Source: Bacilli bacterium
GTDB lineage: Bacteria > Bacillota_I > Bacilli_A > RFN20 > CAG-826
Assembly (NCBI GenBank): GCA_024683495.1
Contig: JAIKYF010000021.1
Span: forward strand, 1 to 41,651
DNA length: 41,651 nucleotides
Reading direction: 5' to 3'
Part shown: in pieces, positions 1 to 6,211 of the stretch
Layout of the letters: each line of letters opens with the position of its first letter
Numbering within the stretch: the stretch's first letter is position 1
Position numbers and translations under genes: made by a program
Notes under the pieces: generated by a model
What the model was told of the DNA's origin: nothing
Databases searched by the model: none
What the model saw: only the letters and a program-made list of their open reading frames with translations

Positions 1-59
1 TCGTAAAACAAATCCTTTCTCAACAGGAGGAAGAACATGAGAAGGCTAAGAAAATATAA
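1..59 (+). CDS. 3' end of an upstream gene, probably the ABC ATP-binding subunit (partial)
   Basis: Frame from nt 3 reads VKQILSQQEEEHEKAKKI* (TAA 57-59) and overlaps the permease start. The product is inferred only from context. Confidence 0.45.
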   Translation, partial: VKQILSQQEEEHEKAKKI

Positions 60-876
60 GCCGTTTGTTCGTGCCTCAGCCATTGATATGATGGCGTATC
101 GTTTTAATATTTTGACATGGGCGATAGTTACTGTTGCGGAAGTTGCTTGTCTAGTTTTCTTATGGCTCGCTGTTTATCAAAGCAGTGAGGGTGGGATTAA
201 TGCTTCTATTAATGGATTTACATATAAGGAAATGATTTCCTATGTTGTCTTAACAACGATATTTGGATTCGTCACTTTTAACGACGATACTATGTGGTAT
301 ATCAATCGAGACATTAGACAAGGAACAATAGGTAATTTCTTAATCAAGCCCATTTCATATCGAGGTAAGTTCATCGCATCAAACATTGGGGCGTTTTCAA
401 TGATGTCGCTTGTGTTTGGTATCCCTCTATATGCAGCTGGTTTAGGAACACTCATCGGAATTGGGTTTTTACCTGTACCATCTGTTTGGGATTTCATTGC
501 CCATTTCGGTTTATTCTTGATCGCTAGTGTTCTCGCTTGTTTATTAAATGGGGCTATTTCTTATTTATTTGGGATATTGTGTTTCTATACCACCGCGGCG
601 TGGGGACTTAATTCATTGAAGACAACAGTGATTTCGTTCTTGTCTGGTACGTTATTGCCTATCGCTTTCTTTCCAAATGTCTTCCGTGAAATTGTCTCTT
701 ATATGCCCTTTGCAGGCATGAGTCAAAACCCAATATTAATATTGATGATGAAATATAGTTATTTGGAATGTGCTAAAGTGCTTCTAATATCTTTCGTTTG
801 GCTAGTTTTATTGGAACTACTTGGCAAACTACTTTTCAATCACGCGATAAAACTCGTCACGGTGCAGGGAGGATAA
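37..876 (+). CDS. ABC-2 family transporter permease (DUF990/ABC2_membrane_6-like)
   Basis: 279 aa multi-TM protein with 'DIRQGTIGNFLIKPISY', 'FLSGTLLPIAFFP' and C-terminal 'VQGG', typical of this family. RBS AGGAGG precedes it. Confidence 0.85.
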   Translation: MRRLRKYKPFVRASAIDMMAYRFNILTWAIVTVAEVACLVFLWLAVYQSSEGGINASINGFTYKEMISYVVLTTIFGFVTFNDDTMWYINRDIRQGTIGNFLIKPISYRGKFIASNIGAFSMMSLVFGIPLYAAGLGTLIGIGFLPVPSVWDFIAHFGLFLIASVLACLLNGAISYLFGILCFYTTAAWGLNSLKTTVISFLSGTLLPIAFFPNVFREIVSYMPFAGMSQNPILILMMKYSYLECAKVLLISFVWLVLLELLGKLLFNHAIKLVTVQGG

Positions 877-877
877 T

Positions 878-1669
878 ATGAGATATATCAAACTTTATTT
901 CACCTGTATCAAACGTAGCGTGATGTCCAGACTGGAATACAAAAGGGACTCGATTATTTCTATTCTTTCCTTCTTGATTTCTAACGCTTGTTCGCTTTGT
1001 TCTATCTACTTTATTTTGCAAGCAATTCCTTCATTAAAAGGCTATACCACTGCAGAAGTCGGCTTTTTTTACGGATTTTCAATGCTTCCTATAGCAATAG
1101 ACCATTTGTTCAGCGATGAATTTTGGTTAGTAGCTTACCGCCGCGTTCAACTAGGAGATATGGACCGTCACTTCTTACGTCCTGTTCCAGTTATTTTCCA
1201 AATGTTTGCGGAAACATTCCAACCAGATGGATTTGGTGAGGTTATTGTTGGCATCACAATGATTGTCATCTGTGGATTGAATTTACAGGTAGCAGTTTCC
1301 TTTGGTGCAATACTCGTTTTAAGTATTGGTGCGATCTTTGGCGCAATAATTATCACTTCATTTAAAATCGCTATTTCATCTTTAGCGTTTATCTTCAAAC
1401 GCAGTGGACCACTACTTCAAATCATTTATAACTTCACTATATATGCAAAATATCCGATTGCTATTTACCCGTATGCAATCCGCTTTATTTTGATTTTTAT
1501 CTTACCGTTTGGATTATTTATTTCCTTACCAGTTGATACATTGCTTTATGGAACTTATAACCCATACTTATTAAGTTTGATCATTGTTGGTGCATCGATC
1601 GCATTCTTTACGCTTGCTACATTTATATGGACATTATGCGCGAGACGATACGAATCAACAGGATCTTAA
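878..1669 (+). CDS. ABC-2 family transporter permease (second subunit)
   Basis: 263 aa multi-TM protein with 'GDMDRHFLRP', 'YPIAIYP' and C-terminal 'RRYESTGS'. Confidence 0.85.
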   Translation: MRYIKLYFTCIKRSVMSRLEYKRDSIISILSFLISNACSLCSIYFILQAIPSLKGYTTAEVGFFYGFSMLPIAIDHLFSDEFWLVAYRRVQLGDMDRHFLRPVPVIFQMFAETFQPDGFGEVIVGITMIVICGLNLQVAVSFGAILVLSIGAIFGAIIITSFKIAISSLAFIFKRSGPLLQIIYNFTIYAKYPIAIYPYAIRFILIFILPFGLFISLPVDTLLYGTYNPYLLSLIIVGASIAFFTLATFIWTLCARRYESTGS

Positions 1670-1677
1670 TTGATATT

Positions 1678-1701
1678 AAAAAAGTCGCCCGGATGGACGA
1701 G
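1678..1701 (-). terminator. Intrinsic terminator in cassette end
   Basis: Minus strand TCGTCC-ATCC-GGGCGA-C-TTTTTT. Confidence 0.6.
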
Positions 1702-1818
1702 TTAATTTACATTGATCTTAGCCTTAATTCAGGCCTTGTCATATGTGTCGACTAATTGTCGTGCTAGGAGAGTGCCTTTTGTCTCATTGAAGAGAATGGG
1801 TTTCGTCCTGCGACAAGA

Positions 1819-2154
1819 TGTGCCAAGACGACGCCAATTCTCCGAAGAAGAACAAACTCCGCTCTCTCCGACAAAGCTCACATTCGACCCGTGGGACACG
1901 GTTTCGACGACGTCTATATTTCGCTCACTTCATCACATATCGTGAGACGTGAACTGACCGGGGGCTAGCCAGAACGCGTTATATCCAGATATATAAAGTA
2001 GCTTCGACGTCGATGGTTTCTGATAGTTCCAGGACGAGGGACGGACGAGCATGAAAAAAACCGCCCACGAGGGACGGTCTAATTCGCTTTTGCTTCGTGC
2101 GTCGGGGAGAACGATCTTCGTATGAATGAGGAGAATTGCTCTCGTCCTGACACA
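1819..2154. mobile_element. Empty mini-element (MITE-like, 336 bp) with TGT...ACA ends, copy 1
   Basis: Starts TGTGCCAAGACGACGCCAATTCTCC and ends GAGAATTGCTCTCGTCCTGACACA (imperfect terminal inverted repeats with 24-bp internal periodicity). ~1952-2154 is nearly identical to ~4972-5172. Confidence 0.85.
2054..2080 (-). terminator. Intrinsic terminator in mini-element end
   Basis: Minus strand GACCGTCC-CTCGT-GGGCGGTT-TTTTT. Confidence 0.7.
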
Positions 2155-2289
2155 TTTGCTGTAATCATCCAAACCCAGTTTTCCTGATTCGTCCAAATTT
2201 CGCTTTCCCCGAAAAGAGCCTCCGCCAGTTGTCTAATTTTGCCACGACTACTTCGACGATATGCAAAAAACACTTGATATAGTTCTACA

Positions 2290-2312
2290 TGCTATAATAA
2301 TGGTTATAGGAG
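2290..2312 (+). promoter_or_regulatory. Extended -10 promoter and RBS of the cassette gene
   Basis: TGcTATAAT at 2290-2298 and AGGAG at 2308-2312, with ATG at 2320. Confidence 0.6.
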
Positions 2313-2319
2313 CATCTAT

Positions 2320-3243
2320 ATGAAGACATATTGTGGAGACTGCAAAAAAGCATTAGATCAAGGCGATCGTTTTTGCCGTTATTGTGGATCTAGCAGGATC
2401 ATAATTGAAAAGGACGAGGAAGCACCTTCTTTTGAAATTAACGGAGATACCTTAGAAACGTACAATAGTGGCTATAGCCATGCATTCAAGGATATACGCT
2501 TATATTTATTTCATTGCCTTGACCATACTTTAGAAAAAAGTGAATTTTTTGATACCATGAAAAAGATAGAAAGGGATGACCTTTCTTCATGGAAACGAGA
2601 GTTATCGGACACTTGGAAACAAATGACTGCATTAGTTATCCCACAATCGGTTAAACGGATTGATATTGAGAGAAAATTTAGCGATTTTTCTATTTTCTAT
2701 AGTATCTCAATCCATCCTGATGTCCATTTTTTTAATTTCTGGCCCTCTCATCAGACTTATATCGGATACATTAATATCCCTCCTAAAACAGAAATAAAGA
2801 AAGTCGGCCAAATCATCGCATACGAATTAAAAATAGATGAGGGGCGTACAGTGTATGATATTGGTAACTACTATGATACTTTGGTTAACAGAATTGTGCT
2901 TCCTAAAACACTTAAACAATTGTTATGCAAAGAACCTCATTATATGCAAATTAATAGTACTTGTGAGATAAACATACCAAGTAGCGTTGATTATATTGAT
3001 ATTGAAATGTTTTCGTGTTGGAGCATTGGAAAAGTGTTCTATGATGGAACGAAGTATAAATTTAAAAGTATATTACATTTTACTGAATTACCGTTTAATT
3101 CGTTTGATTTGCAAGAATTTACTCCAAATGTCGTAATACATTGCACTGATGGTGATTTAAGATTAAGGATTATTAGAAAAGAAGATAAAATGAAAAAAAT
3201 TGAACCACTTAATAAAAGCAATAGTATTGTCGAATTTTATTAA
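2320..3243 (+). CDS. Zinc-ribbon protein with degenerate BspA-type leucine-rich repeats
   Basis: N-terminal CGDC..CRYC. Repeats LVIPQSVKRI, INIPPKTEI, IVLPKTLKQL and INIPSSVDYI, plus a 'FYDGT...IHCTDG' tail, resemble BspA/LRR_5 proteins. Confidence 0.6.
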   Translation: MKTYCGDCKKALDQGDRFCRYCGSSRIIIEKDEEAPSFEINGDTLETYNSGYSHAFKDIRLYLFHCLDHTLEKSEFFDTMKKIERDDLSSWKRELSDTWKQMTALVIPQSVKRIDIERKFSDFSIFYSISIHPDVHFFNFWPSHQTYIGYINIPPKTEIKKVGQIIAYELKIDEGRTVYDIGNYYDTLVNRIVLPKTLKQLLCKEPHYMQINSTCEINIPSSVDYIDIEMFSCWSIGKVFYDGTKYKFKSILHFTELPFNSFDLQEFTPNVVIHCTDGDLRLRIIRKEDKMKKIEPLNKSNSIVEFY

Positions 3244-3259
3244 GTTAGTATCTTGCGGT

Positions 3260-3286
3260 AAAAAAGCCGCCCATTATGGACGACTT
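3260..3286 (-). terminator. Intrinsic terminator in cassette end
   Basis: Minus strand AGTCGTCCA-TAA-TGGGCGGCT-TTTTT. Confidence 0.7.
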
Positions 3287-3403
3287 AATTTACATTGATC
3301 TTAGCCTTAATTCAGGCCTTGTCATATGTGTCGACTAATTGTCGTGCTAGGAGAGTGCCTTTTGTCTCATTGAAGATAATTGCTCTCGTCCTGACACAAC
3401 AGA

Positions 3404-3582
3404 GTTATCTCACGATAGGCTCACATATCCCGCTTGGGGCAAGGATTCGCATCCTCCCTCCGAAGCCGTTCCATCCCCTGCCGCCACGTCATCGGCGCCG
3501 GGTCCGAGGAAATCCTTTGTATAAATACAAAAGACGCCTCTTTCGAGACGCCTGATGTGTTTGCGTTTGCCGTTGCGCCCAG
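3404..3582. mobile_element. Degenerate or truncated element remnant between two cassettes
   Basis: GC-rich stretch with TCTCACGATAGGCTCACAT (cf. TCTCTCCGACAAAGCTCACAT in the 1819 left end) and the same type of minus-strand terminator (3529-3553), but no TGT/ACA termini. Confidence 0.4.
3529..3553 (-). terminator. Intrinsic terminator in remnant
   Basis: Minus strand AGGCGTCTC-GAAA-GAGGCGTCT-TTT. Confidence 0.65.
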
Positions 3583-3828
3583 GTTACTGTGCCAAGACGA
3601 CGCACATTCTCTCCGAAAGGACGAACTTCGCTCTCTCCGTCGAAGCCCATATTCGACCCGTGGGGTGCGATTCGGAGGACGCCTAACATTTGCCAGCCAA
3701 AACTACGATCGTGCGACGTGGGCCAGATTGTTTAACTCTTCTAAATAAATACATACAATTTTAATGTCATTTTTATCTGGACATAAAATTAACTCTCGAA
3801 TTTAGATAGAAAACAAGCCCGAATTCTT

Positions 3829-4629
3829 TTATCTGGATGTGGTTCGAATTCTATTTAATAATTCGCTGTACTTGCTAATTGCATTGTTTGCTATTTCGAT
3901 AACACGAAATAATTCATTAACCAAATCAGGTTCAAAAACAAATTCAATAAATCTTTCTTTAGGTTGTGTATTTTCCACTCTAGCACATAAATCAACAAAC
4001 AATTTATCAATCGTTTCTATGTCTTTTTTTAGTAACGGTACAGCTTCAACAGCAAGATGTCTTAAAGGATAGCAACTTCCATAGTTAGCAATACCACGTA
4101 ACTCGTCAAGATAATATTTTAATTTATCTTTAACCTTACGGTTTTTTTGTCGCAAAATTTGGGGGTCATCAAAACAAAAGAAATGATCCCATAAATAGAA
4201 ATTATAAAATTTGTTTTCGAAAAGATGATAGTAATGCTCTAATCTATGCTCGCACTCTTGTTTAATTTTATAAAGATTTTCTTTATTGTCTAATAGTTTT
4301 TTGATGTACTCACACTCGCGTTCAACTTCATCGATAATTCTTTTAACACCATACTCACCTTCAAAACGACGATATTTAGAAATTAGTAAATTCACTTTTT
4401 CGACAAGCTCTTTTTTTGCTGAATAATAGTCTGATGCAGAATAAGTTCTTTCGTAAAGCTCTTTTTGACGTTCCAATTCTTCTTGCTCTTTTAATTTTTG
4501 ACGTTTCAATTCTTCTTGCTCTTTTAAATATATAGGGTTATCTACTAAAGGAGTGCCACAAAAAGAACAATATAAATGATCTATATCATACTCTTTTTGA
4601 CATTTTGGACACATCTTAGGTTTGCTCAT
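3829..4629 (-). CDS. Zinc-ribbon/coiled-coil hypothetical protein
   Basis: 266 aa with N-terminal CPKC..CSFC, a tandem LKEQEEL(K/E)RQK coiled-coil repeat and a helical remainder. Very AT-rich. Confidence 0.7.
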   Translation of the reverse strand: MSKPKMCPKCQKEYDIDHLYCSFCGTPLVDNPIYLKEQEELKRQKLKEQEELERQKELYERTYSASDYYSAKKELVEKVNLLISKYRRFEGEYGVKRIIDEVERECEYIKKLLDNKENLYKIKQECEHRLEHYYHLFENKFYNFYLWDHFFCFDDPQILRQKNRKVKDKLKYYLDELRGIANYGSCYPLRHLAVEAVPLLKKDIETIDKLFVDLCARVENTQPKERFIEFVFEPDLVNELFRVIEIANNAISKYSELLNRIRTTSR

Positions 4630-4635
4630 AATATC

Positions 4636-4664
4636 ATAATAGTATTAACTATTTTTTTATGCAA
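4636..4664 (-). promoter_or_regulatory. Sigma-A promoter, probably leaderless, for ORF 3829-4629
   Basis: TTGCAT (4664-4659), 17 bp, TATTAT (4641-4636), then 6 nt to ATG with no SD. Confidence 0.55.
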
Positions 4665-4691
4665 TACGCTGACAAAAAGATAACAAAGAAG

Positions 4692-4717
4692 AAAAAAGAC
4701 GCCCATCAAGGACGCCT
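4692..4717 (-). terminator. Intrinsic terminator in cassette end
   Basis: Minus strand AGGCGTCC-TTGAT-GGGCGTCT-TTTTT. Confidence 0.7.
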
Positions 4718-4838
4718 AATTTTACTTCATAGAATATCTGCTAGTTCCTAGCCAACTAGATAATCTTAATTAATGCTCTGTCGAGGGAAGTCGTTTTTGT
4801 CCAACTGAGGGAATCAACGACTGTCCAACAACAATATC

Positions 4839-5172
4839 TGTGCCATGACGACGCCCATTCTCTCCGAAAGGACGAACTTCGCTCTCTCCGTCGAAGCCCA
4901 TATTCGACCCGTGGGACGCGATTCGGAGGACGCCTAGCATTTGCCAGCCAAAACTACGATCGTGCGACGTGGACTGACCGGGGCTAGCCAGAACGCGTTA
5001 TATACAGATATATAAAGTAGCTTCGACGTCGATGGTTTCTGATAGTTCCAGGATGAGGGACGGACGAGCATGAAAAAACCGCCCACGAGGGACGGTCTAA
5101 TTCGCTTTTGCTTCGTGCGTCGGGGAGAACGATCTTCGTCTCGTTGGAGAGAATTGCTCTCGTCCTGACACA
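4839..5172. mobile_element. Empty mini-element (334 bp), copy 2, abutting the rpsR stop codon
   Basis: TGTGCCATGACGACGCCCATTCTCTCC...GAGAATTGCTCTCGTCCTGACACA. The left ~134 bp are nearly identical to 3588-3721 and the rest to copy 1. It ends 7 bp from the rpsR TAA. Confidence 0.85.
5073..5098 (-). terminator. Intrinsic terminator in mini-element; likely terminates rpsF-ssb-rpsR
   Basis: Minus strand GACCGTCC-CTCGT-GGGCGGTT-TTTT, the first such hairpin after the rpsR stop. Confidence 0.75.
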
Positions 5173-5179
5173 CAAGAGT

Positions 5180-5410
5180 TTATCTTTGTCCAGGTTCTGG
5201 GAGAAGAGCCATGAAACGAGCATTTTTGATCGCTCTGGCGAGTTGTCTTTGATACTTCGCAGAGGTTCCAGTGACGGAACGTGGGGTGATCTTCCCATCA
5301 GCATTGATATACTTTTTGAGAAGTTCAACGTCCTTGTAGTCAATATATTTGACTTTGTTCTTAGTGAAGTAGCAGACCTTCTTCCTGGGTCTCATTTTCT
5401 TGAAAGCCAT
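5180..5410 (-). CDS. rpsR: 30S ribosomal protein S18
   Basis: '[46 protein letters not shown]'; follows ssb. Confidence 0.98.
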
Positions 5411-5425
5411 TGTTGATTATCCTTT

Positions 5426-5896
5426 CTATTCAAAGTCTGGAAGATCGTCGTCGAGAGTATCGATGGTGTCCATATTGGACGAAGATTCAGGCTGAACTTG
5501 GCTGGTGACGCCTGGCGCTGGACGATCGGGGCGGAAATCATTTCCACCTTCATTAGCGCGGGGTGTAGTGTCTTTTGGATCGAGGAAATAGAAATTATCG
5601 ATAATCGTTTCGATTGTGGTCATTTCGATGCCGTCGGTCTGACGGATATATTTTCTCTGACTCAAACGTCCTTCAACAGCGACGCGAGTTCCTTTATGGA
5701 GACTGGCTCTAGCAAGTTCTGCTTTTTGTCCAAACGTAACACACCTCATATACAAAGGCGGGTTCGAAGTGCCGTCGGAATTTTTCTTATAATCATTAAC
5801 CGCAATGGTGAAGTTAGTGATTGTGAGCTCAGGTGAAGGTTTTCTGGTCTCTGGCTCACGGGTAAGATTCCCAATAAGGATTACACGGTTCAACAT
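5426..5896 (-). CDS. ssb: Single-stranded DNA-binding protein
   Basis: 'MLNRVILIGNLTREPE', 'VAVEGRL' and an acidic tail DDDLPDFE; lies between rpsF and rpsR. Confidence 0.97.
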   Translation of the reverse strand: MLNRVILIGNLTREPETRKPSPELTITNFTIAVNDYKKNSDGTSNPPLYMRCVTFGQKAELARASLHKGTRVAVEGRLSQRKYIRQTDGIEMTTIETIIDNFYFLDPKDTTPRANEGGNDFRPDRPAPGVTSQVQPESSSNMDTIDTLDDDLPDFE

Positions 5897-5926
5897 AGTT
5901 TAGATCCTCCAATTAATTGTCGTTGC

Positions 5927-6211
5927 TTAGTCTTGATCGACAGTGATCAAGTGACGAAGAACGTTGTTATCAAGTTTCGCTAAACGATCAAATTCGTTGA
6001 GAGCTTCTTCGGCAGTCACTTTGAGAATGACATAGTAGCCTTTGCTCTGCTTTTTGATCGGGTAAGCCAACTCTTTGACGCCCCACTCCTCGGTCTTGGT
6101 GACCTTAGCCTTGTTGTCTTCAAGGATCTTCTGGAGTTTGGCGATTTCATCTTTACGGGCAGCCTCGTCGAGGTTGGCGTTTAAGATGTACATGAGTTCG
6201 TATTTCTTCAT
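5927..6211 (-). CDS. rpsF: 30S ribosomal protein S6
   Basis: 'MKKYELMYIL...WGVKELAYPIKK..GYY...VLRHLI'; RBS AGGAGGTG. Confidence 0.98.
   Translation of the reverse strand: MKKYELMYILNANLDEAARKDEIAKLQKILEDNKAKVTKTEEWGVKELAYPIKKQSKGYYVILKVTAEEALNEFDRLAKLDNNVLRHLITVDQD

Follow-up and report, generated by a model that had tools for sequence, protein, structure and literature searches.

In the available text of two studies (PMC11014353, PMC11406308), Tn7 is described as inserting at a fixed offset beside glmS, and Tn7-like elements are covered together with the attachment sites they use and with cases of several insertions at one site. Here we report on a locus of this kind at one end of contig JAIKYF010000021.1 (41,651 nucleotides, the whole stretch of DNA analysed and hereafter the window). 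The window is the entire contig C80 of a metagenome-assembled genome (MAG) from a Bacilli bacterium (GCA_024683495.1; 1.59 Mb in 172 contigs, 85% complete, 45% GC). Positions 1-5172, together with the end of a second contig of the same assembly (C129), very probably constitute a tandem array of five non-autonomous Tn7-like mini-transposons at an attachment site just downstream of rpsR.

A preliminary description of the array, made from the DNA letters, had not recognised it as a described system. Given the sources above, this judgement has to be withdrawn for the wider class, and it may stand for the rpsR site and for natural stacks of mini-transposons, neither of which was found in the literature searched. 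No paper joining Tn7-like elements or TniQ with rpsR was returned by a search whose reach excluded the supplementary attachment-site tables of large surveys. The search also returned no paper on stacks of natural mini-transposons; as far as their available text goes, those listed among the papers combining Tn7-like elements with miniature inverted repeats were reviews on other matters, none of them on Tn7-derived miniature inverted-repeat transposable elements (MITEs).

Ends and units of the array

The nine ends originally proposed, with ACA at 1815, 2154, 3398, 4833 and 5172 and TGT starting at 1819, 2160, 3588 and 4839, were recovered at exactly these positions. Read inward, they present TGT followed by GACGA-like and TTCTCC-like half-sites repeating every 24 bp, in agreement with the architecture first described. 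The left end of unit A, which brings the number of ends to ten, was located at position 33212 of C129 and is 86% like the left end of unit B. Alignment of the ten ends outlined a common TGT terminus and sites 24 bp apart, with distinct left and right types, and an end consensus was derived from 28 right and 22 left ends in the window, C129 and 24 metagenome contigs (one left end, in L161, is probably a chance match). The TGT...ACA termini, the repeated predicted transposase-binding sites and their different arrangement at left and right ends are those expected of a Tn7-like element.

A strict form of the pattern (TGT-N5-GACRA-N20-ACRA) matches seven of the nine window ends. Elsewhere in the 41,651-base window it has no match, the seven all falling within 1779-5172, and none of 100 shuffled sequences contained a match; since the pattern was taken from these same ends, the shuffle test speaks to their clustering and does not constitute an independent discovery. 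The two off-pattern ends are the right end at 4833, with GACAG and then GACAA, a subtype also present in metagenome contig L168, and the left end at 2160, which carries CCAAA-type sites at the same 24-bp period and for which no close copy was found elsewhere. Among 78 genomes of the genus, the end subtype was detected at two or fewer mismatches in three: the present genome, with eight matches, all in the array beside rpsR, and the relatives G056 and G004, with one match each. The ends thus recur in related genomes, where the preliminary description had proposed to look for them, and are confined to a single locus in their own. A reversed control pattern gave no match in the 78 genomes, and the end pattern itself gave none in viral contigs.

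The five units lie head-to-tail on the plus strand, in one orientation from 5172 back to the contig start, with each right end toward rpsR and bearing a terminator hairpin that reads in the rpsR direction. The window part of unit A (1-1815) comprises two ABC-2 permease genes (37-876 and 878-1669, both matching Pfam PF06182) and right end A (about 1678-1815), which fits the motif when read inward. The remainder occupies C129:33212-34877, where the left end is followed by an open reading frame (ORF) of 381 amino acids (aa) and, at the very end of the contig, by the start of an ABC ATPase gene. This gene appears to continue into the permease genes of the window; from this we infer the join between C129 and C80, and hence a unit A carrying both the 381-aa ORF and an ABC operon. 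The ABC-operon unit first proposed is therefore retained with its permeases and enlarged by the left end, the additional ORF and the ATPase start on C129.

A spacer of only three bases, AGA (1816-1818), separates unit A from unit B (1819-2154); the equivalent junction in metagenome contig L164 has a 5-bp spacer. Unit B is an empty unit of 336 bp, consisting of a left end, a conserved middle, a minus-strand terminator (2080-2058) and a right end, and is 81-89% like eight other empty units. Beyond the 5-bp spacer TTTGC (2155-2159) lies unit C (2160-3398), with the divergent left end (2160 to about 2259), a promoter-like site (2274-2301), a 307-aa ORF (2320-3243, plus strand) and a right end (about 3260-3398) that is 93-94% like right end A. 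Unit C is followed by a 189-bp remnant (3399-3587) with a minus-strand terminator (3553-3532), and then by unit D (3588-4833), in which a left end 96% like that of unit E precedes a 266-aa ORF on the minus strand (3829-4629; promoter-like site 4675-4648) and the right end of the GACAG subtype with its terminator (4717-4697). The 5-bp spacer ATATC (4834-4838) leads to unit E (4839-5172), an empty unit of 334 bp whose right end adjoins rpsR. The spacers, the remnant and the division into two empty units (B and E) and two AT-rich one-gene units with promoter-like sites of their own (C and D) all correspond to the preliminary description.

Units B and E are 86-89% alike and have a GC content of 51-54%, and the left and right arms of the empty units are 71-73% complementary over 55 nt. 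As non-coding units of this size with seven further copies in metagenome contigs, they have the properties of MITEs. Across the array, unit sizes range from 0.33 to 3.5 kb. The attachment site itself (5173-5410, minus strand) comprises a 7-nt spacer (5173-5179) and rpsR (5180-5410; Pfam PF01084), beyond which the minus strand encodes ssb (5426-5896) and rpsF (5927-6211).

The ORFs carried by units C and D have a GC content of 32% and 30%, respectively, and sub-threshold Pfam matches to an N-terminal zinc ribbon. The former received LRR_5 as its Atlas lead (score 0.91) and the latter had no match in Atlas. The 381-aa ORF of unit A matched part of the Tocopherol_cycl domain (35.2 bits, cut-off 26.6; E 9.9e-9), and a PADLOC search for defence systems gave no credible match. 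An in-frame 33-nt tandem duplication, its two copies 97% alike, was observed in a coiled-coil-like part of the unit D ORF (4462-4527). At the RNA level, an Rfam match to SprD was discarded as being at chance level (E 0.35), and the consensus fold of nine empty units, with a covariation term of +0.3, lends no support to structured RNA beyond the terminator hairpin.

The rpsR attachment site and its autonomous relatives

Right ends were found at a nearly constant distance from the Leu-Leu-Pro codons of rpsR. Measured by script from these codons to the first T of the right end, the offset is 24-26 nt in 20 of 21 cases, the exception being L160 with 22 nt; for L168 it is 25 nt by eye. These cases comprise the present array (25 nt, unit E), the congeneric MAG G055 (25 nt from the Leu-Leu-Pro codons and 7 nt from the stop codon), G051, two Clostridia loci and metagenome contigs, amounting to about 20 independent rpsR-adjacent copies. 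The distance from the stop codon varies between 6 and 16 nt, and the right end is the rpsR-side end in every case. Insertion is hence specific in both site and orientation, and the constancy of offset and orientation is the behaviour of TnsD/TniQ-directed insertion.

Scanning of metagenomes with the end pattern identified the 24 contigs mentioned above, in 15 of which rpsR immediately adjoins the right end. Units joined head-to-tail by 5-6-bp spacers are present in L151, L160, L164 and L167, and mini-transposons occupy both the first and inner positions of these metagenomic arrays. Perfect 5-bp duplications flank a 338-bp empty unit in L170 (TTATA) and a unit with a transporter gene in L168 (GATGT). 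The latter unit directly abuts the right end of another unit, an arrangement that is exactly as expected from a new insertion between rpsR and a resident element. TnsA/B/C/Q were not detected in any of the 24 end-bearing contigs.

The autonomous element that the preliminary description had suggested looking for has a counterpart in G055. On its contig C9, the 3' part of rpsR is followed after 7 nt by a right end built in the same way (TGT, then two GACGA sites at a distance of 24 nt), by a terminator and by an operon of four ORFs. These encode a TnsA-like protein of 117 aa (weak match to PF08722, TnsA N-terminal), a TnsB of 596 aa (PF09299, Mu-transposase C, above the cut-off; weak match to rve), a TniB of 405 aa (PF05621 and PF13401, AAA_22) and a TniQ of 423 aa (PF06527); a serine resolvase gene lies further on. 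The reading of the ends as Tn7/TnsB-type is supported by this combination of end, site and genes.

The Mu-transposase C domain was detected in only one of the 78 genus genomes, G055, and its TnsB matched one of 401 genomes in an order-wide draw that did not contain G055. At E <= 1e-10, over 2,300 homologues of the protein were counted, and scanning species genomes for it returned 80 loci in Bacilli, Clostridia and Negativicutes, among which the small operon of TnsA-like (115-134 aa), TnsB, TniB and TniQ genes recurs. In three of the 80, rpsR lies just upstream: G055 and two Clostridia MAGs, in which TnsB is 51-52% identical and the operon sits 9-10 nt after rpsR. The TnsB family is therefore Tn7-like, with one branch targeting rpsR. 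In two loci (L083 and L086, from Oscillospiraceae and Anaerotruncus records, approximately 2570-6000), the same TnsB family was observed directly after an 876-aa ORF with a pyruvate phosphate dikinase-like N-terminus (by eye), which suggests that such a gene may be another attachment site, used by a sister branch.

Within the present genome, tblastn with the G055 proteins identified no TnsA/B/C/Q, and a Pfam profile search gave no match to PF09299 or PF06527. Matches to PF05621 (TniB) were rejected as a cognate AAA+ protein because the profile is unspecific, matching all 14 control genomes, and the rve matches were rejected as a cognate transposase, being of IS3 and IS30 type only. The combination of TnsB, an AAA+ protein and TniQ is thus present in G055 and was detected neither in the window nor in the 85%-complete genome. 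Lacking transposition genes, the units of the window are derivatives of the Tn7-like family and not complete members of it, which bears out their original designation as non-autonomous.

Detection of related units by plain BLAST fails across relatives because the ends diverge too fast. A search with unit E DNA in 41 relatives returned two short, weak matches only, and a simple regular expression for the ends gave three matches, likely by chance, in 20 stretches downstream of rpsR in congeners. Other TGT sequences with internal 20-25-bp repeats were observed 1-10 nt past the rpsR stop codon in nine congener stretches (L043, L044, L045, L047, L050-L053 and L060); they probably represent additional subtypes of ends from the same superfamily, or ends of it that have decayed. 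A repeat search in L051-L053 revealed a second right-end copy in L053 and no clear left ends. The same unit with cation/proton antiporter-like cargo was seen as the first unit after rpsR both in a congener genome (G004:C42, L006) and in metagenome contig L168. In G004:C42 copies of the rpsR terminator sequence lie on either side, and no TGT right end is visible.

The interval between rpsR and gdpP varies widely in the genus. Among 19 congeners, it spans 84-88 bp in four and 1.3-11.5 kb in eight, and in seven it extends beyond the fetched stretch; in the present genome, about 22 kb of C129 (11121-33211) separate gdpP from left end A, and genes of ordinary GC content were seen there. In relatives, many of the contigs that carry rpsR end at the 3' end of the gene, as expected for a strain-variable, repeat-rich site. 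The variable gap, the metagenomic stacks and a public-run contig without unit D (see below) uphold the early claim that the locus accumulates units and differs between relatives.

Partial 3' copies of rpsR also occur within arrays. They precede inner right ends in L160 and in G051, where the stretch L061 (G051:C46; reverse complement, about 3450-3560 and 5510-5740) was observed to hold two such copies, with a TGT right end 7-8 nt behind each and the two right ends differing in subtype. Arrays therefore contain duplicated attachment-site tails. In the window, the tail of the remnant next to right end C resembles the rpsR stop codon and spacer. An assignment of the whole remnant as an rpsR fragment was rejected, as nothing is recognisable by alignment beyond the last 13 nt or so. 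Part of the remnant is 71% like a stretch beyond the left end in L155 and L147. In public-run contigs, the remnant was seen to continue beyond 3587 into an apparent inverted copy of part of itself, and not into left end D.

Mobility of the units and alternative explanations

Nine empty units of about 335 bp, from different contigs and hosts, align over their full length with the same internal layout and boundaries. Where the accompanying rpsR genes are 99-99.5% identical, the mini-transposons are 89-90% alike, and where rpsR DNA is only 70-77% identical they are still 78-86% alike. On this comparison, the mini-transposons do not co-diverge with rpsR, which argues for their movement as mini-transposons.

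Additional evidence was obtained from Logan contigs of four public runs (X1-X4). All four belong to one study and are possibly the source of the MAG, so that they do not count as independent, and window parts without cover in them are uninformative either way; runs X5-X20 contain no more than small parts of it. In X1-X4, the A/C-type right end has a summed depth of about 50x, against 3-7x nearby, and is joined, at its inner boundary (3260/3261), to at least three different sequences. Run contigs also break off into other sequence at 2259, the boundary of the unit C left end. One run contig joins 3604 to 4856, omitting unit D, and another alternative join links 1932 to 4959. These observations favour exchangeable units over fixed relics, without proving transposition in trans.

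Several observations weigh against an array of mobile mini-transposons. Copies within the array differ by 4-14%, and there is no sign of very recent movement here. Although the preliminary description invoked 5-bp duplications as a hallmark of such elements, none flanks any single unit of the window; only A and B taken together are bordered by CTTGC/TTTGC. Spacers that differ among themselves, one of them of 3 bp, are not what would be expected from serial insertion at one fixed point in one genome; they may reflect composite moves, recombination between ends that are 86-96% similar, or import of a foreign array via the flanking conserved genes. In unit C, a divergent left end is combined with a right end of A type, and a single TnsB may not be able to move this unit. 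The G055 right end is related, not identical, to those of the window, and no left end could be located in the 12.3 kb of the G055 element that were read (C9:1-2999 lies outside them). No exact cognate transposase for the window units was found in their own genome or in relatives, the former assembly being 85% complete. The array also derives from a MAG of short contigs, and among the run pieces listed none bridges the D/E and E/rpsR junctions. Finally, target immunity of the Tn7 type should oppose stacking, according to the available text of PMC11014353 and PMC11406308, the former of which raises this conflict for Tn6022 too.

Some of these points would equally suit a set of immobile relics, in which successive full-length Tn7-like insertions each lost their transposition genes in place and nothing was mobilised in trans. 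The missing transposase, the divergence of the copies and the missing 5-bp duplications around individual units are all compatible with this view, as are decayed ends behind rpsR in two relatives (G055:C5 and L053); the duplication around the mini-transposon in L170 would, moreover, survive internal deletion. We nevertheless regard it as unlikely. Independent losses are at odds with identical internal boundaries in nine 335-bp copies from different hosts, with mini-transposons about 10% apart beside near-identical rpsR genes and more alike than the genes beside distant ones, and with the presence of two empty copies in one array and of mini-transposons at both first and inner positions.

The similarity of the ends raises a different concern, that the assembly chained ends from co-existing strains into a number and order of units that no real chromosome holds. 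The MAG comprises 172 contigs, similarity between the ends amounts to 86-96% over 130-335 bp, relatives show many contig breaks at the rpsR 3' end, and the run contigs contain the two alternative joins given above. Even so, other run contigs bridge the junctions A/B, B/C, C/remnant and remnant/D with 0-2 differences (in runs that may be the source of the MAG), and independent metagenome contigs (L151, L155, L160, L164, L167 and L168) contain head-to-tail stacks of their own, which makes even a partial artefact of this kind very improbable. Termini of the form TGT...ACA with repeated binding sites are not unique to Tn7, and another DDE family with TGT/CA termini (IS21, IS481 or Mu-like) could have given rise to ordinary MITEs that cluster by chance; IS3 and IS30 transposases do occur elsewhere in the genome. 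Three observations leave this proposal with next to no credibility: the only autonomous elements found with such a right end at rpsR encode TnsB, TniB and TniQ; insertion at one offset and in one orientation with respect to a conserved gene is what a target selector typically produces; and all eight genomic copies occupy one locus, unlike dispersed MITEs.

Returning to the Tn7-like mini-transposons, their insertion can be envisaged as follows. A TniQ/TnsD-type selector of a related autonomous element would bind the conserved 3' coding part of rpsR and recruit the AAA+ protein (TniB/TnsC) and the DDE transposase (TnsB). TnsB would bind the 24-bp-spaced sites of both ends and insert the element at a set distance, duplicating 5 bp of the target. 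The mini-transposons would retain the ends and a terminator that substitutes for the displaced terminator of the rpsR operon, some of them adding one self-promoted gene or a small operon, and their transposition proteins would have to come in trans. Stacking would follow from repeated insertion directed to one attachment site; together with possible multi-unit composite moves and recombination between similar ends, this would build and reshuffle the array. Within this model we infer the identity of the mobilising transposase, the present mobility of the units and the origin of the differing spacers and of the remnant.

More speculatively, and with considerable doubt on our part, the data could reflect a two-tier Tn7-like family in small-genome gut Bacilli. 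Rare autonomous elements would supply the machinery, and abundant minimal shells, made up of the ends and a terminator and in some cases one gene under its own promoter, would serve as exchangeable cassettes behind rpsR, moving singly or as composites and swapping cargo between fixed end modules, as a transposon-built counterpart of the integron. The empty 335-bp unit, very common next to rpsR, might be under selection in its own right, perhaps as a placeholder that bears a terminator and whose TnsB sites make the site immune to full-size elements.

Comparison with known systems

The locus adds rpsR to the conserved genes that serve as safe landing sites for Tn7-like transposons, and shows that natural Tn7-like elements can decay into, or spawn, mini-transposons that outnumber their parents and still seem to spread. 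The stacking of related ends at one site poses the question of how target immunity is bypassed. The ends, offset and target are well defined and together make a small system; reconstructed in the laboratory, it could serve for site-specific insertion in Firmicutes-type hosts. For annotation purposes, the array accounts for the hypervariable rpsR-gdpP gap and for the frequent breaks of MAG contigs there.

Like Tn7 at glmS and Tn6022 at comM, the units present TGT/ACA termini and several asymmetric transposase-binding sites, which are predicted here, and sit at a fixed offset and orientation downstream of a conserved essential gene that is left intact. A relative encodes TnsB, an AAA+ protein and TniQ, related copies keep 5-bp duplications, and the cargo is variable. 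They differ from these elements in the site, in lacking all transposition genes, in the short TnsA-like protein of the family (only 115-134 aa) and in the stacking of related ends despite strong target immunity. The comM island of Acinetobacter baumannii is the nearest parallel to such stacking: in the available text of PMC11014353, Tn6022 and related elements are described as multiple or nested at or beside one attachment site, with duplications that reveal their history, composite-like capture of flanking DNA and recombination between elements. Those elements are large and autonomous (9-89 kb), whereas the units described here are of 0.33-3.5 kb, have no transposase and are joined by 3-5-bp spacers.

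Units B and E resemble the MITEs of bacterial IS families in their length of about 335 bp, in holding only the ends of their parent, in needing a transposase in trans and in being commoner than the parent in the data searched. Unlike those MITEs, they have a Tn7-like parent and are gathered at one attachment site instead of being dispersed, and some units of the array carry a gene.

The integron-like platform of the preliminary description does not hold as worded. The array has no integrase, attI/attC-like sites or shared promoter; its joints are transposon ends and short spacers, its cargo lies on either strand, and each right end has a terminator. As regards an IntI integrase, only the two zinc-ribbon cargo ORFs are present between the ABC genes and rpsR, no dedicated integrase search of the whole window having been made. 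The likeness to integron cassette arrays is one of analogy only, and resides in the serial accumulation of single genes of foreign composition, with or without a promoter, at one chromosomal point.

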